From: an uncultured bacterium
GTDB taxonomy: Bacteria; Chloroflexota; UBA5177; JANWHV01
DNA length: 64,000 nt
Reading direction: 5' to 3'
NCBI GenBank assembly: GCA_963729625.1
Contig: CAVSOU010000010.1
Span: forward strand, 1,328,719-1,392,718
Position 1 is the stretch's first letter. Every line of letters begins with the position of its first letter. The notes beneath the pieces were generated by a model. That model was not told where the DNA came from. It worked only from the letters and a program-made list of their open reading frames with translations, and did no database searches. This document shows positions 1,803 through 20,726 of this stretch, one piece after another. The position numbers and the translations under genes were made by a program.

Positions 1803-2123
1803 CGGCTTTTCCCCTCCAATATCCGAGTGTATCGCCCAGGCGATGGTTGCAGTTTGACTGGTACCGTCGAGATCGTACGCTGTGCTTCCCGGGTTTCCAG
1901 ACCAATCCGGCAATCGTGCTCCGGGCCGCGGCGCGTATTGCCTGACTCGGATCCCCACGAGACCGCCGCTGCGCGGCAGGTTGGCGCAGGTTGCCGGAAT
2001 CTGCCTATCTTGACAGCAACGGCCTCGGCATGTAGGGTAAGATGTTGCCCTGGAACGGCGTGCACCGCCTCTCACATCCTCATGTGCAACGGGCGCACGT
2101 TCACTGCCAGTCTGGAGGCCGAC

Positions 2124-5566: not shown

Positions 5567-6322
5567 CTACTGAAGGATGCGGTCGACCAGGCGATTGAAC
5601 GTCGCGGTTACGGGCAGATCCGGATACTTCACGGTGAAAACGCCACCGCTGGCGAGGGTCATGATCTCATCCGAGTGCGGGAACACGGCAGCCACTTCAC
5701 TGCTATACGTTTCTTGCACGCGCATCCGAACCGACTCGGCATCGAGGCTGGGCGGACACTTGTTCACGACGAGCAACAGCAACGGGACGCTTAGCTTGCG
5801 CGCCACTTGCACGGTCACCCCGGTACCCTGATAGTCCTGCAAGTCTGGTCGCAGCACGATCAGCAGCACGTCGGAAATGGCGATGGACAGCAGTGTCTCC
5901 TCGTTGAGGCCAGGGTGCGTATCGATAATCAGCGTGTCCAGCTTCAAATCGCGTACCAGGGCGTTGAACCCGTCGTTTAGCAATCCAACGTCGTATCCCT
6001 CGCGCAAGATGCGAGCAATGTTGTTTGCCTGCACGCTGGCCGGCACCAGGAAGACGCGGCCGGGCAAATCCCCGGCTACCGTGTTCGTTACGTCATATGC
6101 GGCGTCCTTGATCTCGCACTTGCCCCACAGATAGTCGTTGAGGACGGGGCCGGCCGGATCCTGCGACATGCCGAACAGCACGTGGATACCGGGCGACATG
6201 ATATCTGTGTCAACGATGCCCACACGCTGTCCACGTACAGCCAACAATGCCGCCAGATTCGCCGACGTATTCGACTTCCCAGTGCCCCCGCGGTAGCTAT
6301 GAACCGAAATAATACGCGCCAT
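5567..6322 (-). CDS. MinD/ParA family ATPase
   Basis: Deviant Walker A SYRGGTGKS, VDTD, LIIDTHPG, VVNK. Confidence 0.9.
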   Translation of the reverse strand: MARIISVHSYRGGTGKSNTSANLAALLAVRGQRVGIVDTDIMSPGIHVLFGMSQDPAGPVLNDYLWGKCEIKDAAYDVTNTVAGDLPGRVFLVPASVQANNIARILREGYDVGLLNDGFNALVRDLKLDTLIIDTHPGLNEETLLSIAISDVLLIVLRPDLQDYQGTGVTVQVARKLSVPLLLLVVNKCPPSLDAESVRMRVQETYSSEVAAVFPHSDEIMTLASGGVFTVKYPDLPVTATFNRLVDRILQ

Positions 6323-6352
6323 ATGTATTCCTCTCTTCGTGCAGTCCGGGTG

Positions 6353-6781
6353 CTATGCAGACGACTTTGGACGATGCACGACGACAATGTTCCGGTTTCC
6401 CTCCGCGGTCCGCTCGTAGCGGAGCTCATCGGTGCCGCGAAGGGCCAGGAACACCCCGAGACCACCGATCTCACGCTCTTCCAAGGGCCGGTCCAAGTCG
6501 TCGGGCGACTGTGCTTCATGCGGGTCGAAAGGCTCAGCCTTGTCCTCGAGGCAGAGGCGCAACTCCGCCTCGTCAAGTTCCGCCCACATAGCGATCGGCC
6601 CTTGTCGGTTCGCCCCGGCATAGCCGTGTACGACAATGTTCGTGGCAATCTCGTCAACCGCAAGGCGCAATTGATATGAAGCCTTCCTGTCCAAACCGGC
6701 ATCAGCCGCTGCGCGCAGCACGAACTGGCCGATATCCGCCAGCGATTCCAGGGTGCCAGGGACGGTCAGACGGTCCACCAT
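6353..6781 (-). CDS. RsbW/SpoIIAB-like anti-sigma factor Ser kinase (HATPase_c)
   Basis: LAVDEIATNIVVHGY, ED..PFDP, GGLGVFL. Confidence 0.92.
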   Translation of the reverse strand: MVDRLTVPGTLESLADIGQFVLRAAADAGLDRKASYQLRLAVDEIATNIVVHGYAGANRQGPIAMWAELDEAELRLCLEDKAEPFDPHEAQSPDDLDRPLEEREIGGLGVFLALRGTDELRYERTAEGNRNIVVVHRPKSSA

Positions 6782-6843
6782 TCTCTCCTTTGAAACCTGT
6801 TGTCTCTAGTCGCTGCCCGATCGGTCAGCGCCAGCACGCAACT

Positions 6844-7770
6844 TCAAGTGATTGCGAACGGTTCTTCCGTCGTCGACCGGCGCACTGCCAGCATCGTGAT
6901 GTCGTCGAACTGCACCGCGGTGCCGATATGCGCGGTTAGATGAGCATGGACGCTCGACACCAGCTCTTTCGCCGAAGCCGGCATCGGACTGTTGATGATC
7001 GATCGCAGTCTCGCTTCGGTGAAAAACGCGCCTGTGACATCTCGCGCCTCTGGCACACCATCGGTGAAGGCCAGCAACATGTCTCCAGGCGCAAATGTGA
7101 CCTGCTGGATCGCAAAATCCACGTCCGGGACCATGCCGACTGCGGGTCCCGTTGGCGTAAGGCGCTGCTTCACGCCCGACTCGTTGAACAACCAGGGCGG
7201 GCAATGGCCGCCATTGATGTACGTCAGCACGCCGGACCCAGGGTCTAGCACGCCGAAGAACATGGTGGCAAACATGCTTGTGTCGCCATGATTCGTGATA
7301 ATGTAGTTGTTGGTCAGCGTCATGGCGTTCTTCAGTGCGGTCGTGCCTGTGGAGGGGATGCCGCGGCGCCTGTCCGCGACCGGGCTACTGAGGAAGTCCG
7401 ACTCTTCGTCGCCCATCCAGCGCAGCGAATAGTGCTGCTGAGCAAAGGCGCGAATGAGGCTGCGGAAAAGTGCCATAAACAGCGCCGCCCCTACCCCCTT
7501 GTCGCACACGTCGGCAATCACCAGGCCGAGCCGCCGGCCCTGGTTGAGCGGAAACGCATCGTAGAAATCGCCCGCTACCTCGCGCGCCGGCTCGAACTCC
7601 GCGGCAAGCTCCCAGCCCGGCACCTGCGGCAGCGTCTTGGGCAGAAAGCTGAGCTGAATATCGCGCCCGATCTGTATGTCACGCTCGAGCTTGAGCAGCA
7701 CCTCCTCGCGCTTGGCGTTGGCTGTGCTCTGCTGCCCAGCATCATCCTCTATCATGCAGTGGTTCTCCAT
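6844..7770 (-). CDS. PP2C/SpoIIE (RsbU/IcfG-type) Ser phosphatase without a sensor domain
   Basis: AREVAGDFYD, IADVCDKG, FATMF, NGGH, FTDGVPEA, DDITML. Confidence 0.92.
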   Translation of the reverse strand: MENHCMIEDDAGQQSTANAKREEVLLKLERDIQIGRDIQLSFLPKTLPQVPGWELAAEFEPAREVAGDFYDAFPLNQGRRLGLVIADVCDKGVGAALFMALFRSLIRAFAQQHYSLRWMGDEESDFLSSPVADRRRGIPSTGTTALKNAMTLTNNYIITNHGDTSMFATMFFGVLDPGSGVLTYINGGHCPPWLFNESGVKQRLTPTGPAVGMVPDVDFAIQQVTFAPGDMLLAFTDGVPEARDVTGAFFTEARLRSIINSPMPASAKELVSSVHAHLTAHIGTAVQFDDITMLAVRRSTTEEPFAIT

Positions 7771-7794
7771 CCCTGAGCTTGTGTTCGGACAGGC

Positions 7795-8109
7795 TCAGTA
7801 GGTGTCGACAATGGAGACACTGTGCTGGAAGCCTGTCATCTCCAGCGTGTCCCTCACGCCGTCTTGCAGGCCCACGAGCACGACTTCCACCGAGCCACCC
7901 ATCTTTTGCTTTGCAAAGATCAAGCCGCGCAAACCGGCGCTGGCCATGTATGACAGGCCGGACATAAAGATGACCAGCTTGCTCACGTGCGCGCCGGCCG
8001 CTTCCTCGACCTTCTCCCGAAACGCGGGAGCTACGCTAGCGTCAAGCTCGCCTTCCAAGGTGATCCGTGCTTCGTCCCCTTCGATCGTGAGCGTTGCATT
8101 GAAGGCCAT
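7795..8109 (-). CDS. STAS anti-sigma factor antagonist
   Basis: LEGELDA, YMASAGLR phospho-Ser motif, LEMTGF. Confidence 0.9.
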   Translation of the reverse strand: MAFNATLTIEGDEARITLEGELDASVAPAFREKVEEAAGAHVSKLVIFMSGLSYMASAGLRGLIFAKQKMGGSVEVVLVGLQDGVRDTLEMTGFQHSVSIVDTY

Positions 8110-8151
8110 GTCCTGCTCCATTCCACATGCGAGCGCAGTCAATTGAGCTGA

Positions 8152-10278
8152 CTAGCGCCCAACCAAGATACAAACCGAGCGATCGCTAAGGACCATAGCG
8201 TGCTGGTCGCTCAGCACGGGCTCGGCGCCAAGCTCCCAAACGTCATCGGGTGCAGCCACGCCGGTGTTGGCGAATACGTGCCAGGCACAGCCTTCGGGCA
8301 GTCCCGGCAACTCGAACACGTGGGATTCCCAGTGCATGTTCATTGCCACGTAGACAAAGTCATCCCGTTCGGTGCCGCCTCGCGCGTGATGTCCATCCAA
8401 GAGAAAGGCCAGCGTGCGACTCGTGCCGGACCAATCCGCGTTCCACGCCTGGGTGCCATGCCAGGTGATGTCGGAATAGCCGCTGCCTACGTAGTCGCGG
8501 TTGGAGAAGTGGTACTGGTTGCGCAGCACGGAATGTGCATGGCGGAAGTGGATGCAGGCTCGGCAGAAACGGAGGAGGCCCGCGTTGCTTTCAACCTGGC
8601 GCCAGTCCAGCCAGCTCAACTCGGAGTCGTGGCAATAGGCATTGTTGTTGCCTTGTTGGCTCCGCCCGATCTCATCGCCCATCAAGATCATCGGCACGCC
8701 CTGACTCGTCAACAGCATCGCCAGCGCGTTCTTGATCTGTTTCTGACGCAGGAAATTGATCCCGGGATCGTCCGTCCATCCTTCTGCGCCGCAGTTCCAA
8801 CTGTGGTTATCGTCAGTGCCGTCGTTGTTGAACTCGCCGTTGGCAGAGTTGTGCTTTTCGTTGAACGAGACCAGATCGGCGAGTGTGAAACCGTCGTGGC
8901 AGGTGATGAAGTTGACGGAGGCCGCGGCACCGCGCCCAAGCGCCTCGTAGAGATCCGGCGACCCTTGCAGCCGCTGACCCATGTCGCCTACCACACCCTC
9001 ATCACCTTTGAGGAAACGGCGCAGCGTGTCCCGGTACTTGCCGTTCCACTCGGCCCAGCGACCGAAGGCCGGGAAGCTGCCCACCTGGTACAGTCCGCCG
9101 GCATCCCAGGCTTCGGCGATGAGCTTGCACTTTGCCAGCACCGGGTCGTAGGCCAGGGTCTCCAGCAACGGCGGGTTGGAGAGCGGCGCGCCGTTCTGGT
9201 CCCGTCCCAGAATCGCCGCGAGGTCGAAGCGAAAGCCATCGATGTGATACTCTGAGGCCCAATAGCGAAGGCAATCAAGAACCATGTTGCGCACAATGGG
9301 ATTGTTGCAATTGAGCGTGTTGCCCGTGCCACTGAAATTGAAGTAGTAGCCTTCGGGCGTCAGCATGTAGTAGGTCTTGTTGTCGATGCCTCGGAACGAG
9401 ATGGTCGGACCGCGCTCGTTGCCCTCGGCAGTATGGTTGAACACCACGTCGAGGAACACTTCGATACCGGCGCGGTGGAGATCTTTGATAAGCGCCTTCA
9501 CCTCATCGACTTGCATCCCCAGCTTGCCGGTGGCCGCGTAGCCCGACTTAGGCGCGAAGAAGCCCACGGTGCTGTAGCCCCAAAAATTGTAAAGCGTCTC
9601 CCCTGTCTCCGGCAGCACGCGGCTGCCCTCAAACTCGTCGAACTCATAGATGGGAAGCAGCTCCACACAATTGACCCCGAGCCCCTTCAGATAGGGGAGC
9701 TTCTCGCGGATGGCGGCAAACGTACCGGGGTGTTTGGCGCCCGACGACGGATGCTGCGTGAAGGCGCGTGCGTGCATTTCATAGATCACGAGATCCTCGA
9801 TAGGGATCTCCAAAGGGCGATCGGACTCCCAGTCAAAGTCGTCGTATACCGGCCGCGCACGATGAGGGTAGGCGTCGTTCCAGTCGGGCTGCTTGCCCCA
9901 ATGGTCACGGCCCGCGATCGCCTTCGCGTAGGGATCCAACAGGATCTTGGTCGGGTCGAATCGATGGCCCTCGCTCGGCGCGTATGGCCCTTCCATGCGG
10001 TAGCCGTACTCGATAGACTCGGGGTCGAGGTCGAAGACGACCATGGCGAAGACATTGCCGATGCGGAAGGCATCGGGAACTGGAATCTCCACCAGTGGCT
10101 CCGCCGCCCCCTTCTGGAACAGCACGAGCGTGCAGGTTGTCGCGTGGCGCGAATAGATGGAAAAGTTGATCCCGCCCGGTACGAGCGTGGCGCCAAAGGG
10201 GAAGGGCTTGCCAGGGCGGAGCCGGTAGCCCAGGTGCTCGTGGGTTGGATGGACGTCGATGCGCTCCATAACTGGCAT
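8152..10278 (-). CDS. glgX: Glycogen debranching enzyme / isoamylase (GH13)
   Basis: DVVFNHT, DGFRFDLA, IAEAWD, FITCHDGFTL, GNNNAYC. Confidence 0.95.
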   Translation of the reverse strand: MPVMERIDVHPTHEHLGYRLRPGKPFPFGATLVPGGINFSIYSRHATTCTLVLFQKGAAEPLVEIPVPDAFRIGNVFAMVVFDLDPESIEYGYRMEGPYAPSEGHRFDPTKILLDPYAKAIAGRDHWGKQPDWNDAYPHRARPVYDDFDWESDRPLEIPIEDLVIYEMHARAFTQHPSSGAKHPGTFAAIREKLPYLKGLGVNCVELLPIYEFDEFEGSRVLPETGETLYNFWGYSTVGFFAPKSGYAATGKLGMQVDEVKALIKDLHRAGIEVFLDVVFNHTAEGNERGPTISFRGIDNKTYYMLTPEGYYFNFSGTGNTLNCNNPIVRNMVLDCLRYWASEYHIDGFRFDLAAILGRDQNGAPLSNPPLLETLAYDPVLAKCKLIAEAWDAGGLYQVGSFPAFGRWAEWNGKYRDTLRRFLKGDEGVVGDMGQRLQGSPDLYEALGRGAAASVNFITCHDGFTLADLVSFNEKHNSANGEFNNDGTDDNHSWNCGAEGWTDDPGINFLRQKQIKNALAMLLTSQGVPMILMGDEIGRSQQGNNNAYCHDSELSWLDWRQVESNAGLLRFCRACIHFRHAHSVLRNQYHFSNRDYVGSGYSDITWHGTQAWNADWSGTSRTLAFLLDGHHARGGTERDDFVYVAMNMHWESHVFELPGLPEGCAWHVFANTGVAAPDDVWELGAEPVLSDQHAMVLSDRSVCILVGR

Positions 10279-10284
10279 GGCCGG

Positions 10285-10626
10285 TTACCCCTTTCCCAGC
10301 GATGCCAACGCCGCGGCCACGCTCGGGTACGTGGTGAAGAACTCGAGGAACCCGGTCGCGGCCATCGTGTCCTGCAGATCCTCCGACAAGCCTACCAGGT
10401 GCACTGAGCCGCCTTTGGCGGTGGCGGACCGGTGCGCGGACAGCAGCATCCTCAGGCCGGCACTCGACATATACGCGACTCCCGTCATGTCCAGAATCAC
10501 GCCCACCCCGGCCACCAATTGCTCCAGGATCCGTGCCTGCGCCACCGGCGCCGTGCTCCCGTCGATGTCGCCTGCAAGCTCCACGACGGTCGCACCGTCC
10601 ACGCTCTTGACCAGAACCTCCATCAT
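10285..10626 (-). CDS. STAS anti-sigma factor antagonist
   Basis: LAGDIDG, YMSSAGLR, ATGF. Confidence 0.9.
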   Translation of the reverse strand: MMEVLVKSVDGATVVELAGDIDGSTAPVAQARILEQLVAGVGVILDMTGVAYMSSAGLRMLLSAHRSATAKGGSVHLVGLSEDLQDTMAATGFLEFFTTYPSVAAALASLGKG

Positions 10627-10702
10627 TGCCCTCCAGGCCCATGCACTTGGGCTCCATCCACCTGGGTAGAGACCCGCATCACTTGTGCGGCAGCGCTCCG
10701 GG

Positions 10703-12520
10703 CTACCGAGTAGGCGTCAGCTGTACCTTTACGCGCACCTGATCGCGCGTGTCCGGCAGGTGCACGGTCAGTGCCTCGGTATCAAAGTCGGTGTACGGCT
10801 CGTCATCCACCCACACGGCGGTCAGCTTCACGCTGCCCGGCGGCAGGATATCGGGCGAGACGCGGAGCAAATGGCCGGGAAACGCATCGGGTAACGGCTT
10901 GAAGTAGAGCTCCATGGGCGTCTTGGTGATCAGGAGATTGATGTAGACCGCCGAGAGGTAGCACAACTCCGATGCATGGTAGAAGCTCATGGAGTGGCTG
11001 CCCTTGTAGCGCTCCGTCCCCACCAGATAGGGGATTCCACTGGCCAGCACGTTGAAGTACACACCACCGTCGTCGTGGTCGAGATGGAAGGCGTTGTAGA
11101 ACGCGGCGGCCTCACGTGCATGCTTGAGGTTCTCGTCGCCGCCGAATGTGCCTGATAGAATTTGGTAGCACAGGATTGCCTGCTCCTGCTGCCACCAAGC
11201 CTTTCGGTCGTGCCAGGAGAAGCGATGGTACTTCTCACCTGGGGCCAGCGTGCGCTCCACCATGTCGTACCAGCCGCCGCGCTGTGTGTCGGAGCCGACC
11301 GCCGGCATGACGCGCCCGATCTTCTGCGCCAGCTTGGCGTAGCGTTCATGTGGCTGCGCATTGAAGATGCGCGTAAGGTTCCAGGCTATCTTCAGGTTGT
11401 GCCCGACGACCGCACGATCCTGCTGGAAGCCCCAGGTCTTGTCGTGGCTCCAGTCCTCGTAGAACCGCTCCTGGACGAATGGGCTGTGCTCGTCATCGGG
11501 GAAGTACTGTTCGATGCAATCGGCGCAATACTCCAGCATCTTCGCGTAGCGCTCATCCCCCGTGGCGAGCCACAGGTTCACCAGGTACGCGGGCGCATGG
11601 TCGCCCACGGAATTCCAGTTCTTTTTGCCACGATTGCGTCCAAGCGTCTCGCTGCGCGGATCGAGCGTAATCGGGTCAATGTGCGAGAAGTAACCCTTTC
11701 CTTTGTCGTCACGGAAGAACCGGTCAAAGAGGTCCATAGTTGCAACGGCGTCCGCGTGAATCCGAGGATCGCCCGTAATCCTGTAGGTCTGAATCGGACC
11801 TGCCAACGCATATATCTGCTCGTAGGCCGGAATGGCATCGTAGTCATCGCCAAATTCGGACGCGAAGACTTTGTCCTCGCGCGTGCCATGCACGTCGATG
11901 CCGTGATACCAGTACACGATGTTCTCATCTCGGTCGACGAAGCGCATATGTTCGCGCAAGTATTCGGTGCCCTTCTCGGCGCCCTCCAGGTACTTGTCTT
12001 CACCGGTCAGCATGTAGCATGAAGCGAACCCGTACACCATGCGGGAGATGGTGTCTGTCTCCTGCCGGAAGTCATCTTTCTTCTTGCCGCCGGTCAAACT
12101 GATCATCGTGCGGTAGTTGCGATAGTCGATGGGCTCGTCGCCGAATTGCCAGCGCAGATAGCAGTCGCCCACTGAGGCGATTTGCTTGATCCACCAGTCC
12201 GGCTTTTCGAACAGGTACTCCGTAGGTGTGCGGCCGACAAAGATCAAGCGTTTCGCTTCGTAGGAAAGCGTCTCCTCCGGGTAGAAGCTGCCGTAGGCGA
12301 AGAGGAACCGCCCAGGCACCAGCATCCGATTGATCAGGCCGGTGGCATCGGCATAGGGCTCGTCGGCGTTGCGCAGCAGCTCCGCATAGGCACCGTCGCT
12401 GATCTTGACGGGGAACTCTCGGCCGTCGGACGTCTTCAAGCCAAACGTGCGCTGGGCCTCGTCGAATGTTGTGACGTAGCCAGCGATCGTATCCGAGAAG
12501 GTGAAGCTGACGCTATTCAT
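10703..12520 (-). CDS. AGE-family (N-acylglucosamine 2-epimerase-like) sugar epimerase/isomerase, long ~605-aa form
   Basis: SRMVYGF, VGHNLKIAW, KAWWQQEQ, KGSH..YH motifs; AAGGAG RBS before ATG 12520. Confidence 0.8.
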   Translation of the reverse strand: MNSVSFTFSDTIAGYVTTFDEAQRTFGLKTSDGREFPVKISDGAYAELLRNADEPYADATGLINRMLVPGRFLFAYGSFYPEETLSYEAKRLIFVGRTPTEYLFEKPDWWIKQIASVGDCYLRWQFGDEPIDYRNYRTMISLTGGKKKDDFRQETDTISRMVYGFASCYMLTGEDKYLEGAEKGTEYLREHMRFVDRDENIVYWYHGIDVHGTREDKVFASEFGDDYDAIPAYEQIYALAGPIQTYRITGDPRIHADAVATMDLFDRFFRDDKGKGYFSHIDPITLDPRSETLGRNRGKKNWNSVGDHAPAYLVNLWLATGDERYAKMLEYCADCIEQYFPDDEHSPFVQERFYEDWSHDKTWGFQQDRAVVGHNLKIAWNLTRIFNAQPHERYAKLAQKIGRVMPAVGSDTQRGGWYDMVERTLAPGEKYHRFSWHDRKAWWQQEQAILCYQILSGTFGGDENLKHAREAAAFYNAFHLDHDDGGVYFNVLASGIPYLVGTERYKGSHSMSFYHASELCYLSAVYINLLITKTPMELYFKPLPDAFPGHLLRVSPDILPPGSVKLTAVWVDDEPYTDFDTEALTVHLPDTRDQVRVKVQLTPTR

Positions 12521-12641
12521 CCAGGCGATCTCCTTGCAGCTGAAACACTTACCGCAGATACCGCATGCATCGACAAGCGTGGAGGTTGAGCTCGCAGTCA
12601 ACCCCACCGTCCACGAGCGGCAATAGATGGCTCAATTCTTC

Positions 12642-12650
12642 ACTATAGCA
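12642..12650 (-). promoter_or_regulatory. Possible extended -10 promoter (TGcTATAGT) for the AGE-glgX operon
   Basis: AT-rich patch ~120 bp upstream of the AGE start; no good -35. Confidence 0.3.
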
Positions 12651-12754
12651 GGAATAATCTACAAAAGTTGGGCATTACAGGTCGCTCGTGCCGGTTGGCG
12701 CCATCGAGGCGGTCGTGCCAGCGGCAGTGGCAAACAGGGCGCGTCGGGCTCCCA

Positions 12755-13564
12755 TCATTTCATGAAGCTGTCATCAAGGGGCTGGCCATCGACGACGGCC
12801 GAATCCCCTCCGTCGAAGGTCCGAGACCCGCGGACAGTTCGGGCCCGAAGCTGCAGGTTCTTGAAGAAATCGGTGTCGGCAATCTCGGCCACCTGTTTAG
12901 CTTGGAGTGCAGGGTCGATTTCTATACGGAGCTCGCGCACCTGTTGCTTGAGCGCCTCCTCCCGGGCCTGCACTTCGCGCGCCATCTGCTGAAACTTGCG
13001 GGCAAGATGTCCCAATGAGTCAGTTCGCTGGGTTACTTCCTGCAGCGCTTCAGGGCGGAACGTGCCGACTTCAAGATCGTGGGCCGCAGCGGTGATCATT
13101 TCGACCATGCGAATATACTCGTAGTCCTCCGTCCGATCCGAATTGGTGCCCCGCAGGCGCTCGCACAGCACTTTGATCACGCCTTCAGCCACCTCACTGC
13201 GCTCGCTGAGCAGATGGCGAAATGCCGTGCTACTGAGCCGGTACAGCCGGCAGGCGGTGGCGGCTACTGCGGTGGCACTCCGTGTCTGCGAATCCAGTAC
13301 CGCCATTTCACCAAATACTTCGCCCGGATAGTGGTGATCAAGCAGCAGGGGACCGTCGAAGATGCCGACTTTGCCGTCGACGATGATATAGAGTGCGTCA
13401 CCCATCTCACCCTTGGCGAAAATGGTCCGGCCGGCTTCGATGGCCACCGCAGTGAGGGCCTCTGCAACTTCGAGAAGCACGTGTTCGGGAGTGCCCGCCA
13501 GGATACCAATGCCGCGCAAGCAGGTCAATCGTTCTTCGATGTTCTTCAAGTGTTTCGCCCCCAT
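12755..13564 (-). CDS. cNMP-binding domain + HAMP-like segment + conserved C-terminal motif
   Basis: IFAKGEMGDALYII.DGKV, GEVFGEMAVLD...RSAT; DSLGHLARKFQQM; LRIEID..QVAEIADTDFF; start uncertain. Confidence 0.8.
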   Translation of the reverse strand: MGAKHLKNIEERLTCLRGIGILAGTPEHVLLEVAEALTAVAIEAGRTIFAKGEMGDALYIIVDGKVGIFDGPLLLDHHYPGEVFGEMAVLDSQTRSATAVAATACRLYRLSSTAFRHLLSERSEVAEGVIKVLCERLRGTNSDRTEDYEYIRMVEMITAAAHDLEVGTFRPEALQEVTQRTDSLGHLARKFQQMAREVQAREEALKQQVRELRIEIDPALQAKQVAEIADTDFFKNLQLRARTVRGSRTFDGGDSAVVDGQPLDDSFMK

Positions 13565-13905
13565 CGTGCGACTAGCATGCGTGAGATTGGTAGTGCAGGG
13601 AAGCAACATTCCTTGTTGGGCTTCTCGATCGTAAACAACGAAGAACCGCCCCTTTCTCCAATCTATACTGCCAAGCCCAAGAAGCAAAGGGGTCGCTGCG
13701 AGCCGCGATTGCTCACCAGCGACTCCAGAGCCACGGGCGGGCACTGCAGACATGCAGCGTGAGCCTTCGTCGCCTAGCGGCTAGCTTTGGCAGACCGTTG
13801 GGAGAGCCCCACTGTGATAGTCAGCTAATTCGACAAGATGTATTATTGCGCAGCAAGAAGAACTCTGCCTATTCGACAGGCCTCCCTGTGATGAGGAGTT
13901 GTGCT

Positions 13906-16900
13906 ATGTATCGACGGCCGCGCGCCCTACTCGCGATTTCCGTGCTTCTGCTGGCGACTGCACCTGCGTCGCGTGTCTCCCAAATCGCCTTGGCACACTC
14001 GGACCAGGCATCGAAGTCGCCTGCGAGCCCGACGGCCCTGCTGAAGTTGAGCGTGCAGCCCCCCAAAGTCCAGGTCGGCCGTGACGTTTCGCTTCAGATC
14101 CGTATCACTGATGCCACCGGCAAGCCCGTGACGCGGGTCTTGGTCACCATCATGGGCGCCGGTCGCCCGGGCGCTGGCACGGCGAGCTCCGGCACACTCG
14201 TCTTTGCCGTGCATGCCGCATCGCTAGGCACGATCGTCGTGCAAGCTACCCACGCAGGTTTCGCACCCGCCACCGTGAAGCTGCCCATTATCTCAGGCTC
14301 TCCAGCCACCGTCGTCGCAATCAAGTCCGGGCTAAGAGTCCTGGCGCCCCACGCCAAACCGCAATCCGGCAAAGTGGGCACCGACCTTTTCGACCTCTAT
14401 CATGGCGTTACCGCCAAGAGCCAGTACGCGTCGCTGGCGCTGCGCGACGGAACCTTGATGGACCTGAACGCGAGCACGGACGTAGTGATCCACGACCCCC
14501 TGCACACCACGCTTACGAACGGCGAACTCTTCCTGGAGGTCGTGCACGGCGCGGCGAGCCACCAGATTCAGGTTGGTAATGCAGTAGCCGCTACCAAGGG
14601 GACACGCCTCGACGTCAAGGGAAACTCCAAGACGAAGACGTGGGTAGTGACGGTGATTGAAGGGCAGGTCCAGGTGACCAATGTTAAGGTAAAGGGGGCG
14701 CCGAGCACGATCCTTGTTGGGTCGGGGCAACAAAGCACCGTAGTCGGGAACCGCCCACCAAGCCCACCAGCGCAGGTGAACGTGAGCAAGGTGATAGTGT
14801 GGGTGAAGAATGTGCCTAACACCAATGCGACCACCGTTCCCCCGGTGCTCAACCTTCCCCTGCCACAATATGTACCTCCCGTTGTGGCTCCTCCGGCGGC
14901 CAGCTCGCCGGCGATCACCATCACCGGCACGCTGTCGACCAGCACCTGGACCGCAGGGGACGGCCCCTATCTCCTGAATGGCGGAGTGACCGTGCCGGCA
15001 GGGGCGGCACTGACCATCGCCCCCGGCACCACCGTGGAGATGGGCCCCTACGCCTACCTGGATGTGCTCGGCACGCTCACCGCCCGCGGCACCGACGCCA
15101 CGCCCATCATCTTCACCAGCGCCGCGGCACAGCCCAAGCCGGGCGACTGGCAGTACATCCGTTTCGACGGCGCCCGGGCCGTCCGCAGCGTGTTCGACCA
15201 CGTGCAGGTCTTCTACGGCAGCAGCAATGGCGGCGCCTCAGGCATGCTCTCGCTCACGGGTGGGGCCAATCTGACCATCAGCAACGACGTCTTCAGCCAG
15301 GCCAGCACGCTGGGACTGTGGATTGACGACACCACGCGCCCCACCGTCACCAACTGTGTCTTCGCCGGGAACGGCAGCTACGCCATCGAGGCCCCGGTCG
15401 ACGACCTCGGGCTGATTACCGGCATCGGCTACGGTCCCGGGCAAACGGGCATGCGGGTGCGAGGTGGCACCGTCTCCCATGATGCCACCTGGCAGCGTCC
15501 CGATGTGCCGGTTCAGCTGCTTGATGCCACGACCATAGCCACAGGCGTTACGGTCACTATCGCCCCCGGCACCACCGTGGAGATGGGCCCCTACGCCTAC
15601 CTGGATGTGCTCGGCACGCTCACCGCCCGCGGCACCGACGCCACGCCCATCATCTTCACCAGCGCCGCGGCACAGCCCAAGCCGGGCGACTGGCAGTACA
15701 TCCGTTTCGACGGCGCCCGGGCCGTCCGCAGCGTGTTCGACCACGTGCAGGTCTTCTACGGCAGCAGCAATGGCGGCGCCTCAGGCATGCTCTCGCTCAC
15801 GGGTGGGGCCAATCTGACCATCAGCAACGACGTCTTCAGCCAGGCCAGCACGCTGGGACTGTGGATTGACGACACCACGCGCCCCACCGTCACCAACTGT
15901 GTCTTCGCCGGGAACGGCAGCTACGCCATCGAGGCCCCGGTCGACGACCTCGGGCTGATTACCGGCATCGGCTACGGTCCCGGGCAAACGGGCATGCGGG
16001 TGCGAGGTGGCACCGTCTCCCATGATGCCACCTGGCAGCGTCCCGATGTGCCGGTTCAGCTGCTTGATGCCACGACCATAGCCACAGGCGTTACGGTCAC
16101 TATCGCCCCCGGCACCACCGTGGAGATGGGCCCCTACGCCTACCTGGATGTGCTCGGCACGCTCACCGCCCGCGGCACCGACGCCACGCCCATCATCTTC
16201 ACCAGCGCCGCGGCACAGCCCAAGCCGGGCGACTGGCAGTACATCCGTTTCGACGGCGCCCGGGCCGTCCGCAGCGTGTTCGACCACGTGCAGGTCTTCT
16301 ACGGCAGCAGCAATGGCGGCGCCTCAGGCATGCTCTCGCTCACGGGTGGGGCCAATCTGACCATCAGCAACGACGTCTTCAGCCAGGCCAGCACGCTGGG
16401 ACTGTGGATTGACGACACCACGCGCCCCACCGTCACCAACTGTGTCTTCGCCGGGAACGGCAGCTACGCCATCGAGGCCCCGGTCGACGACCTCGGGCTG
16501 ATTACCGGCATCGGCTACGGTCCCGGGCAAACGGGCATGCGGGTGCGAGGTGGCACCGTCTCCCATGATGCCACCTGGCAGCGTCCCGATGTGCCGGTTC
16601 AGCTGCTTGATGCCACGACCATAGCCACAGGCGTTACGGTCACTATCGCCCCCGGCACCACCGTGGAGATGGGCCCCTACGCCTACCTGGATGTGCTCGG
16701 CACGCTCGACGCCCGCGGCACCGACGCCACGCCCATCATCTTCACCAGCGCCGCGGCACAGCCCAAGCCGGGTGACTGGCAGTACATCCGTTTCGACGGC
16801 GCCCGGGCCGTCCGCAGCGTGTTCGACCACGTGCAGGTCTTCTACGGCAGCAGCAATGGCGGCGCATCCGGCATGCTCTCGCTCACGGGTGGGGCCAATC

Positions 16901-17112
16901 TGACCATTACGAACTGCCTGGTCGCCGACGCCGCGCAGATCGGAATCTGGGTGGAAGACGGCAGCCATCCTACCATCGCCTACTGTTCGTTCCGGGATGA
17001 CAGGGGCGCGGCAATCAGCATTCCTGCGCCAGATCCGGCGCGTATTCACGACAACACGTTTGCGGCAGGCCAGGCAGGAATGGATGTGCGGACGAGCGGC
17101 GCCTCCTATTGA
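13906..17112 (+). CDS. Secreted FecR-domain protein with beta-helix-like repeats (paralog 2)
   Basis: GAGGAG RBS, signal peptide, same Ig-like + FecR N-terminus as 2124..5285, 181-aa repeats. Confidence 0.8.
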   Translation: MYRRPRALLAISVLLLATAPASRVSQIALAHSDQASKSPASPTALLKLSVQPPKVQVGRDVSLQIRITDATGKPVTRVLVTIMGAGRPGAGTASSGTLVFAVHAASLGTIVVQATHAGFAPATVKLPIISGSPATVVAIKSGLRVLAPHAKPQSGKVGTDLFDLYHGVTAKSQYASLALRDGTLMDLNASTDVVIHDPLHTTLTNGELFLEVVHGAASHQIQVGNAVAATKGTRLDVKGNSKTKTWVVTVIEGQVQVTNVKVKGAPSTILVGSGQQSTVVGNRPPSPPAQVNVSKVIVWVKNVPNTNATTVPPVLNLPLPQYVPPVVAPPAASSPAITITGTLSTSTWTAGDGPYLLNGGVTVPAGAALTIAPGTTVEMGPYAYLDVLGTLTARGTDATPIIFTSAAAQPKPGDWQYIRFDGARAVRSVFDHVQVFYGSSNGGASGMLSLTGGANLTISNDVFSQASTLGLWIDDTTRPTVTNCVFAGNGSYAIEAPVDDLGLITGIGYGPGQTGMRVRGGTVSHDATWQRPDVPVQLLDATTIATGVTVTIAPGTTVEMGPYAYLDVLGTLTARGTDATPIIFTSAAAQPKPGDWQYIRFDGARAVRSVFDHVQVFYGSSNGGASGMLSLTGGANLTISNDVFSQASTLGLWIDDTTRPTVTNCVFAGNGSYAIEAPVDDLGLITGIGYGPGQTGMRVRGGTVSHDATWQRPDVPVQLLDATTIATGVTVTIAPGTTVEMGPYAYLDVLGTLTARGTDATPIIFTSAAAQPKPGDWQYIRFDGARAVRSVFDHVQVFYGSSNGGASGMLSLTGGANLTISNDVFSQASTLGLWIDDTTRPTVTNCVFAGNGSYAIEAPVDDLGLITGIGYGPGQTGMRVRGGTVSHDATWQRPDVPVQLLDATTIATGVTVTIAPGTTVEMGPYAYLDVLGTLDARGTDATPIIFTSAAAQPKPGDWQYIRFDGARAVRSVFDHVQVFYGSSNGGASGMLSLTGGANLTITNCLVADAAQIGIWVEDGSHPTIAYCSFRDDRGAAISIPAPDPARIHDNTFAAGQAGMDVRTSGASY
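15016..16907 (+). repeat. Intragenic tandem repeat, 543-bp unit, about 3.5 copies
   Basis: Units start at 15016, 15559, 16102 and 16645; the first three read as identical, the fourth is partial with a few substitutions. Confidence 0.95.
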
Positions 17113-17244
17113 CGTGTAGGTAACCGTGTGCCACCCCGCATGCACCAACCCTTCCCGATTCTGCTATCGCTGGAATCGCGTTTACGAGATAGTATGGATT
17201 GGGCAATTGGACGCCATCGGAGATGCGGGTGGGGGACATCCACT

Positions 17245-17604
17245 ATGCGTGACGCCGAGATCCAGGGTTGGCTGAGCCAGCACGAGAATGAGCCTCGGGT
17301 TCGTGGAGTCACTGCTGTCGATCTATTGGAGCTACCACCAGCGCTCAACCAGATTCTGCGGATGCTGCTTTCGCATGGGCCTATGACGCAGTCGCAGATA
17401 CAAGCCGCCCTGGCCGCGTTGCCGGACACGCTCTGGGTTGACGACAGCGACCTGCCCTTCGCACTTGACGGTCTGGTCAATCTGCAGTGGCTGCTACGCG
17501 AAGCGGCGAGTCCGCCGGAATCGGGGCCGGTATATCGAATCAACTTGCGCACGAAAGCCCGCAACACTGCTGTGACCGGCGGATGGGAGGCGCTCGATTT
17601 CTAG
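17245..17604 (+). CDS. Small hypothetical protein, possible winged-helix fold
   Basis: DLLELP..LNQILRMLL..GPMT..I...L....LDGLV..QWL...YRI pattern; start uncertain. Confidence 0.6.
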   Translation: MRDAEIQGWLSQHENEPRVRGVTAVDLLELPPALNQILRMLLSHGPMTQSQIQAALAALPDTLWVDDSDLPFALDGLVNLQWLLREAASPPESGPVYRINLRTKARNTAVTGGWEALDF

Positions 17605-17632
17605 ACTCGGACTTGGGCTACTTGGGCAGACG

Positions 17633-18961
17633 TTGAACGTTCAGCGCGGCGAGTGGGCAGTGCTTAGCCGGTTTCTCGTGCTGTTCGGCATCCTCAGCCT
17701 GCTGATCGATGGCGTGGACGTACTGGCGACGAGCGACTACGTGCTCAATGTCGGCACCGACGCGATTCCCATCATCTGGTCAGCTGTCACTGTCACGCTG
17801 GTGGTCGTGTCTGCGGCGTATGCCTTGATTGCCGACCGCTTCCCCCGTCAAGTCGTGATGCGTATTGTGCTGACTGCCTTCGGCCTTGCATTCGTCGTGG
17901 TTTGGATGCTGCTGAATGGTTCGTTCCTGTCGAAGGCAGTGCTCTACAACGCTCTCTATTTGTTGACAAACGTGCAGATGATCGTTCTGCCACTTGCGTT
18001 TTGGCCGATGGCCAGCGATCACTACAACGTCGCCAATAGCACCAGGTTGTTTCCGGCAATCGCGATGGCCGGCCTGATCGGCAAGATCGTAGGGAACTGG
18101 CTTGGGGGCGTGTCCGTTGCCTGGTTTGGGGCGCGAGGCCTGAACGGCAACGATCCCCTGCTGATAGGCGGGGGGGTGCTGTTTCTGGCTGCGCTGGCGA
18201 TTCCTGCATTGGTACCGGAACGGCGAAGCGTGGAGGCGAGGTCGGGCTCACCCAAGCTCAGCATCGTCGACACGTTGCGAGAGGGCATGGACTTCGTACG
18301 CGAAGTGCCGTTGCTCCGCTACCTGGCGATCGTCTTCTTTGTCAATCAACTGGTCATAACGATTCTTGACTACCAGTACCTGGTGGTCGGCGCGGAGAGG
18401 TTTCCACGCGCCTCCGACTTCAGCGAGTTCTTCGGCAATCTTCGGGCACTCTGGAACGTGCTCGCCCTAGCCATGCAGGTGCTGATTGTCAGCCGCCTGA
18501 GTGCTCGGCTTGGACCGAAGAACATTTTTTTCCTGGTGCCAGGTGTGTTGGCGGCTGGGATGGCGGGCGCCGCCGTGGCCTACGCATTCATCAGCGTGGT
18601 CATTGTGCGCTTCGCAGCCAATGTCATTACCACGACCTTTGAACGGCCGGCACGGAAGGCGGCCCAGGGCTTGGTGCCGGAGAGCAAGAGGGGCCGGGTG
18701 ACCACCTTCATCGACAGCTTCCTCTTTGCCATTGCCCAGATCATCGGCTGCGCAATCATCGGGGCCGGAATCGTGCTCCGCCGCGCGGGAATTTTGGGTT
18801 CCACAGGCGTGGCGGTCGGTTATCTGGCGATCGGCGCCGGCTGCGCCCTTCTCGGCATATACTTTGTGATGCGTCTGCGCGCTACGTACGATGCCAGCCT
18901 GGTGAATTGGCGCCTGGCACGGCGCAAGCGGGTATCGGCCCTGGTCGACCTGGACCTATGA
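17633..18961 (+). CDS. MFS-fold transporter resembling the TLC/NTT (ATP/ADP translocase-like) family
   Basis: About 12 hydrophobic segments; FWPMASD.Y....TRLFPAI...GLIG motif. Confidence 0.65.
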   Translation: MNVQRGEWAVLSRFLVLFGILSLLIDGVDVLATSDYVLNVGTDAIPIIWSAVTVTLVVVSAAYALIADRFPRQVVMRIVLTAFGLAFVVVWMLLNGSFLSKAVLYNALYLLTNVQMIVLPLAFWPMASDHYNVANSTRLFPAIAMAGLIGKIVGNWLGGVSVAWFGARGLNGNDPLLIGGGVLFLAALAIPALVPERRSVEARSGSPKLSIVDTLREGMDFVREVPLLRYLAIVFFVNQLVITILDYQYLVVGAERFPRASDFSEFFGNLRALWNVLALAMQVLIVSRLSARLGPKNIFFLVPGVLAAGMAGAAVAYAFISVVIVRFAANVITTTFERPARKAAQGLVPESKRGRVTTFIDSFLFAIAQIIGCAIIGAGIVLRRAGILGSTGVAVGYLAIGAGCALLGIYFVMRLRATYDASLVNWRLARRKRVSALVDLDL

Positions 18962-19067
18962 AGCGCGAAATCGGCGCCGCCTGCACCTGGCCAGAGCCCA
19001 ATCAGTTGGCGCAACCATCGACCGGCGTCCGGCCCGTCACTGCATGACGGAGTAGAGGAGTACGAGC

Positions 19068-20132
19068 ATGCGGCGTGTGTTGTCGAACATCCTGAGGCGA
19101 GCCGGCTGGCTGCCGGCGACTGTGACATGGCATGTGCGGCCAGTAATTGCCAGGGTCATCCTCTGGATCCAACTCATGGCGGTGTTCCTGCTACTCTTTG
19201 CCCTGGCCTTTGGGGGCACGGTATACCTGTTCTACAACAATTCGTCCGACCAGGCCATGAGCGTGCTGCGCAACGATCTGAATGGCAGCGCGACTGCTCT
19301 GGCCGCTCAGCTGGATGCCGCGACCGTGGCGAGGATACATGCCGTTGGGCAAATGAATGGCGAGTACAAAGCGGTTCAGGCGCAGCTGCTGTATCTGGTA
19401 GCCTCCGACCCCAAGATCCACGGTGCCTATATCTTCACGCGCAATCCTTCAGATCCCAAGACGATGCTCTGGATTGTCACGTCCAACCTGCATCCAAAAT
19501 GTAAGTGCAACGTGACGCGCAACAAACCGTACGATCCTGCAACACACGCAGCCGAGATGTTCGCCGCGTTTCAGCATCCCACCACGAGCCCCAATATCTA
19601 TAGCGACGTGTATGGTTCGTGGTTGTCTGGCTACGCGCCGATTCGTGACGCCAAGGGAGCCACGGTGGCGATTGCCGAGGTGGACATGACTGCCCAGTCG
19701 GTGGTCACCGTGCAGAACAACATCAAAGATGCCAGCATTCGGGTGTTCGTCATCGTGCTGGCCTGCTTGCTGGCCGTCATCCCGCTCATGGCCGCCGTAA
19801 TCACCAACCCGCTCAAGATTGTGACACTGGCTGCTCGGGCGCTCGAGGTCGGTAGCACCCCTGACAGGGCCGAGCTGGAGCGCGCCACGCAGGGCCGCGA
19901 CGAAGTGAGCCAATTGGCGCGCGTCTTCATTCGCATGACAGACGAAGTGCGGGCCCGGGAAGAAAAACTCAAACGTCAGGTGGCGGAGCTCAAGATCGAG
20001 ATTGACCTCGCCAAGCAGGATACCCAGGTGGCAGAGATTACGGAGACGGACTTCTTCCGCGAGCTCCAGCAAAAGGCGCTTCTCATGCGCGCGCGTGCCA
20101 CGGAGCCAGTGCCGGCCCTGCCGGCTGTCTAG
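19068..20132 (+). CDS. Membrane sensor: TM, Cache-like domain, TM, HAMP, conserved C-terminal motif; no catalytic output
   Basis: YSDVYGSWLSGYAPIRD.KG (Cache-like); ITNPL..RDEVSQLARVF..M (HAMP); LKIEID..QVAEITETDFF. Confidence 0.8.
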   Translation: MRRVLSNILRRAGWLPATVTWHVRPVIARVILWIQLMAVFLLLFALAFGGTVYLFYNNSSDQAMSVLRNDLNGSATALAAQLDAATVARIHAVGQMNGEYKAVQAQLLYLVASDPKIHGAYIFTRNPSDPKTMLWIVTSNLHPKCKCNVTRNKPYDPATHAAEMFAAFQHPTTSPNIYSDVYGSWLSGYAPIRDAKGATVAIAEVDMTAQSVVTVQNNIKDASIRVFVIVLACLLAVIPLMAAVITNPLKIVTLAARALEVGSTPDRAELERATQGRDEVSQLARVFIRMTDEVRAREEKLKRQVAELKIEIDLAKQDTQVAEITETDFFRELQQKALLMRARATEPVPALPAV

Positions 20133-20198
20133 CTATGTTGCGACTAATCAACCGTGCGGCGCGGCGCGCCTGCCACGAGTCGGGGGAGTTCTGGTGAA

Positions 20199-20726
20199 AT
20201 GGTCGAACTGACTTTGACCGCAACGCTGACGGCGGAGCGGGTCACTGCTCGCCACAAACCGTTACTGCGCGAGGCCACACCCGGCGACCGGGACCGTCTT
20301 TGGCAGTTCATCACGAGATCGGGTCTGGAGGCCGCGGGCGCCCTCGAGTCAGGGACCCGTTTCTGGGTGCTGGAAGACGGTGACGGGCAGATCGTGGCGA
20401 GCACCGGCCTTGAGTACGGGCCCACTGCCGTCCTATTTCGAAGTACCGCAGTCGACCGTGCCTACCGGCGCCGTGGCCTTGCCCTGGCCCTGTATGAGTT
20501 TCGCTTCGCGGTGGCTATGACCGAGGGCTACAAGATTGCCTATGGCTTCTGCGATACGCCGGGATTCATGCTGCGCACCGGCTGGCGAGCGGTGCCGGTG
20601 GCAGAGGTGGTGGAAGCGCTGCCTCAGGCTCACCAGGTTGCCCATTTCGCGCGGATCGGCTGGTTGCCTACGGAGCATGCTTTCCGCAGAGACTTGACTA
20701 CCAGGTGGGATGACGGGCTGTCCTGA
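20199..20726 (+). CDS. GNAT family N-acetyltransferase
   Basis: AVDRAYRRRGLA acetyl-CoA motif. Confidence 0.8.
   Translation: MVELTLTATLTAERVTARHKPLLREATPGDRDRLWQFITRSGLEAAGALESGTRFWVLEDGDGQIVASTGLEYGPTAVLFRSTAVDRAYRRRGLALALYEFRFAVAMTEGYKIAYGFCDTPGFMLRTGWRAVPVAEVVEALPQAHQVAHFARIGWLPTEHAFRRDLTTRWDDGLS

Follow-up and report, generated by a model that had tools for sequence, protein, structure and literature searches.

A C-terminal module shared by diverse bacterial sensors as a probable coupler to an RGGTGKS MinD-like ATPase

ATPases of the MinD/ParA type are active as ATP-bound sandwich dimers and have protein regulators, MinE acting with MinD, the ParB N-terminus with ParA, and McdB with McdA. 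In the split tyrosine kinases of the CapA/CapB type, a membrane protein uses its cytoplasmic C-terminal tail to activate a P-loop kinase from this superfamily, and FleN/FlhG are MinD-like switches on transcription activators or flagellar proteins. Among receptors, HAMP and S-helix coiled coils regulate dimeric outputs such as kinases and cyclases through helix packing; the S-helix signature is a central polar constellation of the ERT type. S-helices, coiled coils some 40 residues long, are placed between sensor (or HAMP) and catalytic domains (PMC1592074), and the text of a ParA/MinD review contains none of the terms HAMP, receiver, sensor and signal transduction (PMC11407121). We describe here a module found at the ends of two sensors in a 64,000-nucleotide (nt) stretch of contig CAVSOU010000010.1 from an uncultured Chloroflexota bacterium; this whole stretch is called the window below, and its genome is G000. 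The two sensors are a cyclic nucleotide (cNMP)-binding protein, A, and a membrane protein, B, and we refer to the last part of their shared module as the tail. We consider it probable that the tail is a coupling or docking module by which such sensors control a MinD-like ATPase with the Walker A sequence RGGTGKS, because tail and ATPase share genomes and operons and are often joined in one chain ordered sensor, tail, ATPase.

The sensors, their shared module and the ATPase are placed as follows in the window (aa, amino acids; ORF, open reading frame; TM, transmembrane; AF2, AlphaFold2):

12755-13753, minus strand: protein A, with cNMP-binding domain, HAMP-like unit and tail (longest ORF 332 aa; Pfam cNMP_binding at residues 104-184, 6e-20)
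12821-13105, minus strand: shared module in A, residues 217-311 (BLASTP against B and alignments)
12821-13006, minus strand: tail proper of A, LARKFQQ...TDFFKNLQLRAR, residues L250-R311 (translation and alignments)
19068-20132, plus strand: protein B, with TM helix, single-Cache periplasmic domain, TM helix, HAMP and tail (ORF 354 aa; AF2 and Foldseek)
19812-20099, plus strand: shared module in B, residues 249-344 (BLASTP against A and alignments)
19914-20099, plus strand: tail proper of B, LARVFIR...TDFFRELQQKA, residues L283-A344 (translation and alignments)
5567-6322, minus strand: MinD-like ATPase, beginning MARIISVHSYRGGTGKSN, with Walker A HSYRGGTGKSN (Pfam ParA 57.1, AAA_31 57.1 and CbiA 46.6 bits, above cut-offs)

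The true start of A is probably M64, at 13564, which gives a protein of 269 aa, because a near-identical cNMP paralogue on another contig (C15) has 267 aa and DNA identity between the two, at 94.7%, is confined to 12774-13587 of the window. This C15 copy is the third tail protein of the window genome and a true paralogue of A in another context; a strict regular expression for the motif matched only A and B in the genome, and the C15 copy needed a hidden Markov model (HMM) search. The initial annotation had described two different sensors with the same ending. Both ORFs lie where it placed them, the tails that it quoted translate exactly, and 49 of 97 residues (51%) are identical between A217-312 and B249-345 (BLASTP E 8e-22), a likeness that, judged from the alignment, far exceeds chance and coiled-coil composition. 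The motif is shared as described, but its supposed length of about 45 aa was too short: the module comprises about 100 aa, in which a HAMP-like unit is followed by a coiled coil with IEID at its end and by a terminal helix, QVAEIxxTDFF. The HAMP-like unit has the consensus lT.AAaavE.G.f...R.DELGqLARVF in the family alignment and is present in cNMP and receiver (REC) types too. For the coiled-coil part the consensus is AREqrLKqQV.ELrIEID, and for the terminal helix QVAEITETDYFr.Lq.KA..lR; across the family the coiled coil ends in the pattern (L/I)x(I/V)EID and the final helix follows QVAEIT-x-TDYF..L..KA..LR.

At E<=0.1, Pfam gave neither A nor B a kinase, cyclase, HATPase_c, GGDEF/EAL, PP2C, phosphatase or MCP domain, in agreement with the earlier reading of both proteins as free of kinase, cyclase, phosphatase and MCP domains, and NCBIfam returned nothing above its cut-offs for either. 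B scores 23.8 bits against Pfam HAMP (PF00672), below the cut-off of 25, and relatives with the same module often pass at 27-62 bits; A has no Pfam HAMP match. A profile search of PDB sequences with the tail found no match, the top entry being a designed scaffold at 0.22, and nothing in Pfam, NCBIfam or the PDB accounts for the tail, which is accordingly not an annotated domain of known function in these collections. Weak library matches of the tails to LSU and HAUS2 were rejected as spurious.

An AF2 model of B, built on a 27-row alignment, has a mean predicted local distance difference test score (pLDDT) of 79.5, with less confidence in the tail (53-76). It places a TM helix on either side of an alpha/beta periplasmic domain and, after the second of these helices, the HAMP unit, which has the expected architecture of a helix to residue 261, a connector, and helices at 267-274 and from 279 onward. 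The tail is modeled as one long helix, 279-325, that passes through IEID to EIT, and a terminal helix, 328-344, set off from it by a break at E326-T327. Residues ~56-208 have a Cache/PDC fold, with Foldseek matches to WalK (2.4e-9), a formate-binding sCache domain (2.4e-5), KinD and CitA. The "Cache-HAMP" label first given to B thus stands by fold for its Cache part and does not stand by Pfam, where HAMP is sub-threshold and the periplasmic domain has no Cache match.

The tail belongs to a large family. When a profile of the two tails was scored against 1.84 billion representative proteins, matches extended to 1905 clusters of 50% identity with E<=1e-3, 779 of which reached E<=1e-10. The tail is C-terminal: in 168 proteins a median of 9 residues follow the match, and more than 40 follow in only 7, all of them low-complexity. 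We listed Pfam architectures for 128 of the best 150 tail representatives; the remaining 22 were short fragments or duplicates. The inputs ahead of the tail were HAMP alone, dCache_1, sCache_3_2, GAF, PAS, REC and HisKA-REC, as well as a full hybrid kinase, cNMP_binding, CHASE3, 4HB_MCP, MASE1, DUF4118, Tll0287-like and ECF-type TM domains, and WD40 plus dCache. Behind the tail, Pfam places no catalytic domain in any of these 128 relatives, and no HisKA match overlaps it. The modular character that the initial idea of a non-catalytic output assumed is shown by the same tail following more than a dozen kinds of input.

Such proteins are annotated merely as "HAMP domain-containing", "cyclic nucleotide-binding" or "response regulator" and therefore appear as sensors without an output. 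A word-indexed protein search returned the same architectures with generic names only, neighbors of the tail in the ESM Atlas fell in "hypothetical protein" clusters only, and full-text literature searches outside subscription journals and supplements turned up no account of the tail or of a coupling to the ATPase. For related loci, one genome per species was scanned with a 5-row alignment, 454 places were confirmed, and the best 80 loci were analyzed with our own simple gene calls, which found a tail gene in 70 of the 80 and 81 tail genes in all. The 80 loci are mostly from Chloroflexota; others are from Cyanobacteria, Armatimonadota, Acidobacteriota, Binatia and Actinomycetota (Rubrobacteraceae, Solirubrobacterales, Gaiellaceae), and in alignments the invariant or near-invariant tail positions are kept across phyla. 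Tail genes also occur in tandem, 2-4 per locus, with four in L053 and further cases in L058, L051 and L030.

A common input is HisKA, the dimerization and histidine phosphotransfer (DHp) domain, plus REC without HATPase_c (L022, L028, L036, L047, L055 and L061); it is also found in many fusion proteins, for example P0172 and P0190. Hybrid kinases and single-domain REC genes precede the HisKA-REC tail genes. Such an arrangement resembles a phosphotransfer or relay module that would pass signals to the tail and the ATPase.

The window genome encodes a single ATPase of the RGGTGKS subfamily, which scores 399 bits; no other ParA-like ORF of the genome exceeds 51 bits. This ATPase is 52-66% identical to most ATPases of the related loci, many of which adjoin a tail gene. 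Motifs common to the family are HS[FY]RGGTGKSN, VDTDIQSPGIH, LNDYLWGKC, IDTHPGLNEETL, LRPDxQDYQGT and YPDHP, and an alignment of 20 sequences has a mean column identity of 65%, with GK[ST], the switch I residues D38-x-D40 and the Walker B DTHPG invariant or nearly so. The enzyme looks active from these motifs. The deviant Walker A motif with its signature lysine reads KGGxGK[ST]; here, the motif is RGGTGKS, with R at the lysine position in 19 of the 20 members and H in one. The NCBIfam cut-offs for MinD proper are missed (minD_arch 92.8 vs 201.75; minD_bact 50.9 vs 212.9), and the closest PDB relatives are archaeal and Aquifex MinD (1hyq, 3.5e-22; 4v03, 4e-16). A bacterial tyrosine kinase of the CapB/CapA type was considered and rejected, as eps_fam scores 33.9 against a cut-off of 108.05 and the 20 sequences have no C-terminal tyrosine cluster. 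A C-terminal membrane-targeting helix is not evident in the ATPase.

Across the phylum, tail and ATPase were found together almost without exception. Among 301 Chloroflexota genomes searched with an ATPase profile (20 rows; E<=1e-40) and a tail profile (E<=1e-8), 37 had the tail and 35 the ATPase; no genome had the ATPase without the tail, and both were absent from 264. The 35 positive genomes hold 74 tail matches and 57 ATPase matches, which are matches and not strict copy numbers. One tail-only genome, G224, has a weak partial match (1.6e-9, model positions 3-39). Within the window's genus, both parts occur in G000 and G190 (2 of 5) and neither in G127, G163 and G172; since the pattern varies within families and within this genus, the link is more than shared ancestry. 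In a second sample, of 201 cyanobacterial genomes, the ATPase was found in 35, the tail in 29 and both in 28, leaving 1 tail-only and 7 ATPase-only; the rows of the tail profile are Chloroflexota-like, so detection in Cyanobacteria is weaker. In 3 of 5 ATPase-only cyanobacteria that were rechecked, sub-threshold tails were present, one of them 2 kb from the ATPase. The initial annotation had suggested an HMM of the tails, a listing of architectures and a check of co-occurrence with the RGGTGKS MinD subfamily, and the outcome is a large modular family that tracks the ATPase.

In many loci the two genes are also neighbors. Clustering of the genes up to four positions away from a tail gene gave a ParA/MinD-like family as the commonest, at 38 loci and mostly at distance 1. 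Counting only ATPase members of at least 200 bits, the ATPase is present at 36 of the 70 tail loci, within four genes at 33 and adjacent at 26; in 23 of the 70 it lies immediately downstream of the tail gene on the same strand, with gaps of -37 to 183 nt. The inputs of the ATPase-adjacent tails (Pfam domains in 68 of the 81 tail genes) include REC, cNMP, HisKA-REC, dCache, sCache_3_2, Tll0287-like and ECF-TM, and by their domain content the tail module is the sole part common to these sensors.

Natural fusions provide a third connection. We searched for homologues of the window ATPase of 441-2000 aa (E<=1e-30) and analyzed the best 120 of 199, which are 47-64% identical to it over the whole ATPase. 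An HMM scan placed the tail directly N-terminal of the ATPase in 108 of these 120, at a spacing of 2-82 residues (median 48), and seven fusions inspected residue by residue (cNMP, HisKA-REC, dCache, PAS and REC inputs) have the tail directly before the ATPase. Among the other 12, seven have an N-terminal ATPase with another part behind it, and P0169 looks like a frame-shifted gene call. In P0189, one of the longer homologues, the ATPase is combined with a Ser/Thr kinase and an FHA domain. The fusion types among the best 120 include cNMP_binding plus ATPase (~500 aa) and dCache_1 plus ATPase (~760 aa); HisKA plus REC plus ATPase proteins (~700-790 aa) are in many cases cyanobacterial and annotated "response regulator", and PAS plus ATPase and REC plus ATPase fusions are also among the matches listed. 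Their lengths are those of a tail protein and an ATPase set end to end. In many relatives the module is a linker within one chain and no free docking tail.

The MinD-like ATPase had been named as one plausible partner of the tails, and the near-perfect co-occurrence in two phyla, the operon adjacency and the abundant fusions support this. The related suggestion that different inputs are funneled to one partner fits the window genome, which has three tail proteins (two cNMP paralogues and the Cache sensor) and a single ATPase of the subfamily; several sensors converging on one ATPase is what this genome shows, and it is not a general three-to-one rule. Modeling of a complex with the ATPase lent weak support. 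The input was two copies of the ATPase (20 rows), two of the B tail (residues 24-96 of A6; 35 rows), 2 ATP and 2 Mg, and the score was 0.38 (runs 0.38, 0.42 and 0.28), compared with 0.09 for the best control; contact agreement was at least 84% and partner pLDDT at least 63. Of 157 solved complexes, 116 attain the prediction mark, as do 2 of 215 mismatched pairs; at 0.60 or under, it is attained by only 18 of the 157 and by both mismatches. A weak pass of this kind counts only given a pairing already likely from genomic evidence.

Several points weigh against such a coupling. Genome G086, which is complete, has a tail (4.3e-25, in a 372-aa protein, match at C63:53959-54138) and only generic ParA matches at 34 bits, with no RGGTGKS ATPase; it is a real exception to co-occurrence in the phylum, and the single clear one. 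Seven ATPase-only cyanobacteria have no tail at 1e-8, and 2 of the 5 rechecked have none at E<=0.01. At 34 of the 70 tail loci, no ATPase lies within ~10 kb, and in the window itself A ends 6.4 kb from the ATPase gene and B starts 12.7 kb away. Related genomes are non-independent samples, by which co-occurrence counts inflate the statistics, and the gene calls at the related loci are longest ORFs and hence crude. The complex prediction was a weak pass without a reported interface, and an AF2 model of the fused cNMP-tail-ATPase protein P0171 (mean pLDDT 58.7, 8 close rows) was too poor for one. Control over formation of the ATPase sandwich dimer, finally, is purely inferred.

Taking the tail as a coupler to the ATPase, we propose the following mechanism. 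In a sensor dimer, the coiled coil would relay a change induced by ligand or phosphorylation to two ATPase units and, by setting their geometry, might gate dimerization or ATP turnover. Where sensor and ATPase are separate proteins, as in the window, the free tail would bind the ATPase by non-covalent docking, with the terminal helix (TDYF..L..KA..LR) and the IEID region as putative docking surfaces. In the window, two cNMP paralogues and one Cache sensor would converge on the ATPase at 5567-6322. Membrane sensors such as B would also localize the ATPase, because it has no evident membrane-targeting helix of its own; soluble ones such as A would not.

The remaining genes of this region that bear on the system are:

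6353-6781, minus strand: RsbW-like kinase, in the ATPase operon (Pfam, NCBIfam)
6844-7770, minus strand: PP2C/SpoIIE, in the ATPase operon (Pfam, NCBIfam)
7795-8142, minus strand: STAS, partner-switching, in the ATPase operon (Pfam, NCBIfam)
8152-10278, minus strand: isoamylase (GlgX-like), between A and the ATPase operon (Pfam)
10285-10626, minus strand: second STAS, anti-sigma antagonist-like (Pfam STAS 5e-23; homologues in 6 related loci)
10703-12607, minus strand: GlcNAc-2-epimerase-like gene, between A and the ATPase operon (Pfam)
13759-17112, plus strand: FecR plus right-handed beta-helix exoprotein, 1117 aa, divergent from A (Pfam)
17128-17604, plus strand: winged-helix family protein, 158 aa (best match in G000, 3.5e-7, to an HMM of 8 small winged helix-turn-helix (wHTH) neighbors)
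17633-18961, plus strand: MFS/TLC-like membrane protein, directly upstream of B (Pfam MFS_1; homologues in 14-16 loci)
20154-20726, plus strand: GNAT acetyltransferase, directly downstream of B (Pfam)

The STAS, PP2C, RsbW-like and ATPase genes are separated by gaps of 24-62 nt, and the STAS/RsbW/PP2C set also stands beside tail and ATPase genes in L030, L069, L006, L074 and L073. The wHTH family, to which the protein at 17128-17604 is related (BLASTP 3e-8 with its L053 homologue), has members of 95-132 aa at 19 of the 80 loci with a conserved C-terminal peptide, ..R.xPLxIWxxL.. (L053:10449-10784, L035:10989-11333 and L033:5358-5699). Its domain is also fused to ParA-like proteins, at the C-terminus in L027 and the N-terminus in L046, and lies mid-chain in ~960-aa proteins with amino-acid-transporter-like TM regions (L022, L028, L035, L036, L039, L064 and L074). 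The MFS/TLC-like family occurs in 20 of the 301 phylum genomes, and all 20 are also positive for tail and ATPase; by this distribution it would be a system-specific accessory. Its gene usually lies ahead of a B-type Cache sensor, together with ATP-grasp and radical-SAM genes or GNAT, and in L030 and L068 a GNAT gene separates the MFS gene from that of the B-type sensor. The wHTH family, the MFS/TLC-like protein and the STAS/RsbW/PP2C genes are candidates for downstream outputs.

A conserved gene set surrounds B-type sensors in the window (17128-20726) and in L013, L053, L056, L058, L069, L030 and L068: an MFS/TLC-like protein, ATP-grasp (D-Ala-D-Ala-ligase-like) plus radical-SAM proteins or GNAT, the sensor and the ATPase. 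The content of this B-type operon suggests a loop in which a small molecule or peptide would be made, exported and sensed. In L030 (Thermoflexales), one run holds epimerase, isoamylase, STAS, RsbW, REC-PP2C, tail and ATPase, and goes on with MFS, GNAT, B-type tail, wHTH and ATPase; because the same parts stand there in one run, window 5567-20726 resembles a loosened version of a conserved cluster. The epimerase and isoamylase (67-76% identity) precede the STAS-RsbW-PP2C-tail-ATPase run in L030 (43-3833), and an isoamylase lies ahead of such a run in L069 (57-1346). These gene orders hint at a link of the system with glycogen or sugar metabolism in this Chloroflexota clade. In Nostoc (L004, L008, L018 and L040), a conserved four-gene set comprises the dCache-HAMP-tail and ATPase genes and, after them, genes for a DUF7005 protein (Pfam 1e-170) and a double cNMP-binding protein.

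Both cNMP-tail genes of the window genome adjoin a large secreted FecR plus beta-helix protein, the C15 paralogue of A being followed by one of 1055 aa (L081:5874-9041), and a third such protein, of 1495 aa (798-5285), abuts the ATPase gene. The protein at 13759-17112 contains three identical ~181-aa repeats and a near-identical fourth, TIAPGTTVEMGPYAYLDVLGTL..GTVSHDATWQRPDVPVQLLDATT, and two ORFs opposite to its gene (15238-15744 and 15781-16287) have identical translations, which gives a DNA period of 543 nt; the repeats may have arisen by recent tandem expansion or may reflect a collapse in the assembly. Neighbors of cNMP-tail genes in L005, L006, L009, L014, L017, L046 and L073 are choice-of-anchor Q/CSLREA proteins of 1800-2200 aa and adenylate cyclase-AAA_16-TPR (STAND) proteins, and the neighboring adenylate cyclase may supply the cNMP. 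The window's FecR plus beta-helix proteins had no BLASTP homologue at 1e-4 in the 80 loci, so their likeness to beta-helix neighbors elsewhere is one of Pfam/NCBIfam domain type only.

Other explanations of the tail can be weighed against these data. It might be chiefly a self-association coiled coil, forming dimers, tetramers or mixed arrays, with the ATPase acting in the same pathway without contact. Its predicted long helices would suit this, as would mixed oligomers from the 2-4 tandem tail genes of L053, L058, L051 and L030, and the complex prediction supports contact with the ATPase just weakly. We nevertheless consider self-association unlikely as the main role, given that the tail stands 2-82 aa before the ATPase in 108 of the best 120 longer homologues, that an oligomerization helix would hardly track one ATPase subfamily in 35 of 35 and 28 of 29 genomes, and that the conserved polar residues (ARE, EID, QVAEIT-TD) exceed the needs of a zipper. 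An origin in chance or compositional coiled-coil resemblance, or as a functionless, decayed DHp remnant of a histidine kinase, has practically no probability left. The region is helical and charge-rich, and histidine kinases too begin with HAMP and a helix; the A-B E-value of 8e-22, the 779 clusters at E<=1e-10 and the near-invariant positions across phyla, together with the lack of HisKA overlap in the 128 proteins and of a PDB sequence match better than 0.22, already refute this reading.

The tail could also dock a different neighbor, namely the wHTH protein, the MFS/TLC-like protein or a CheY-like single receiver. The confinement of the MFS family to tail- and ATPase-positive genomes (20 of 20) and its presence at 14-16 loci, the wHTH family at 19 of 80 loci, and single REC genes just upstream of tail genes in L022, L036, L047, L055 and L066 speak for such a partner, and IEID-x-A recalls the EIDAL of FliM, which binds CheY (PMC6946799). 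Each of these families is a minority companion, however, MFS in 20 of the 35 ATPase-positive phylum genomes and wHTH in the same 19 loci; the single REC genes stand at loci with a HisKA-REC-tail protein and so fit a phosphorelay, wHTH domains are fused to ParA-like ATPases and not to tails, and none of the three was found fused beside the tail as the ATPase is in 108 of the best 120. We regard docking to one of them as quite improbable. Very improbable, too, is docking to the sensor-less PP2C or its partner-switching proteins, which had been the other partner initially suggested: PP2C, RsbW-like and STAS genes do share an operon with the ATPase in the window and the set stands beside tail genes in L030, L069, L006, L074, L073 and L012, but PP2C is found at E<=1e-50 in only 12 of 301 phylum genomes, five of which (G081, G117, G135, G153 and G198) lack tail and ATPase. 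Its close homologues (at least 59% identity) are limited to three tail-bearing genomes of the 301 (G000, G190 and G131), the looser ones occurring also without a tail; a homologue is present in only 8 of the 80 loci, and at least 25 of the 35 genomes with tail and ATPase lack one. On this distribution PP2C was rejected as the general partner.

Signaling censuses count sensors by known outputs, such as kinase, cyclase, GGDEF, MCP and DNA-binding domains. If the tail couples to the ATPase, a class of orphan sensors in Chloroflexota, Cyanobacteria and Actinomycetota would gain an effector, MinD/ParA ATPases would gain a role as receptor-controlled switches, and cAMP/cGMP and phosphorelay signaling in these phyla would gain a new branch. 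There is, in our judgment, about an even chance that tail sensors and the RGGTGKS ATPase form a previously unrecognized prokaryotic signal-transduction pathway, with many receptor types, a fused or docking coupler and an accessory set of its own (winged-helix, MFS/TLC-like and partner-switching proteins), spread over Chloroflexota, Cyanobacteria, Actinomycetota, Armatimonadota and Acidobacteriota. Such a pathway would stand to two-component systems roughly as eukaryotic receptor-coupled NTPase switches do. The natural cNMP-tail-ATPase fusions of ~500 aa are ready-made soluble objects for testing it.

Compared with described systems, the coupling proposed here combines features of several. MinE, ParB and McdB embody a similar idea, a short helical element of another protein acting on an ATPase of the MinD family, and differ in that they position cargo or the division site, whereas here the partner would be the output end of a receptor. 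CapA/CapB (PDB 3bfv, 2ved and 4jmp) resembles the present case in pairing the tail of a split membrane protein with a P-loop protein of the MinD superfamily, with natural fusions too, but the likeness of our ATPase to CapB is limited to the P-loop (E ~6e-7, model positions 5-57) and the tail is unrelated to that of CapA. FleN/FlhG (PDB 5j1j and 8pb9) are likewise regulatory switches rather than positioning proteins and offer a possible model for action on wHTH proteins; they differ in their distant similarity (1.8e-10), in the flagellar context that is absent here, and in having no conserved sensor tail. In vWA-MoxR conflict systems, MinD/ParA-like effector domains are predicted inactive and are kinase-coupled, with no mention of HAMP in the text of the paper (Kaur et al. 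2020, PMC7159879). As here, MinD/ParA-like domains occur there in signaling-type multi-domain contexts of multicellular bacteria; in contrast, the catalytic motifs of the present family are conserved and the coupling would be to HAMP-tail sensors. The EIDAL peptide of FliM, which binds phosphorylated CheY (PMC6946799), is N-terminal, whereas IEID-x-A lies within a C-terminal coiled coil, and we treat the resemblance as a lead only.

Another of the closest parallels is with S-helix and HAMP linkers, which join sensors to dimeric outputs (histidine kinases, class III cyclases, GGDEF, PP2C and NtrC AAA+). Like them, the module directly follows the sensor or HAMP domain as a long conserved helix, and in its fused relatives it joins a dimerizing enzyme, the segment lying between sensor and ATPase in 108 of the best 120 longer homologues. 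Unlike an S-helix, it has an extra terminal helix, QVAEIT-TDYF, and in hundreds of proteins it ends the chain, the output coming from a separate gene; its polar site reads A-R-E, as against the ERT signature. The outputs named in the consulted passages of the S-helix paper do not include a MinD-like one (PMC1592074). The coiled-coil coupler between a sensor and a dimeric output is thus a known principle, and what would be new here is a MinD-like ATPase as that output.

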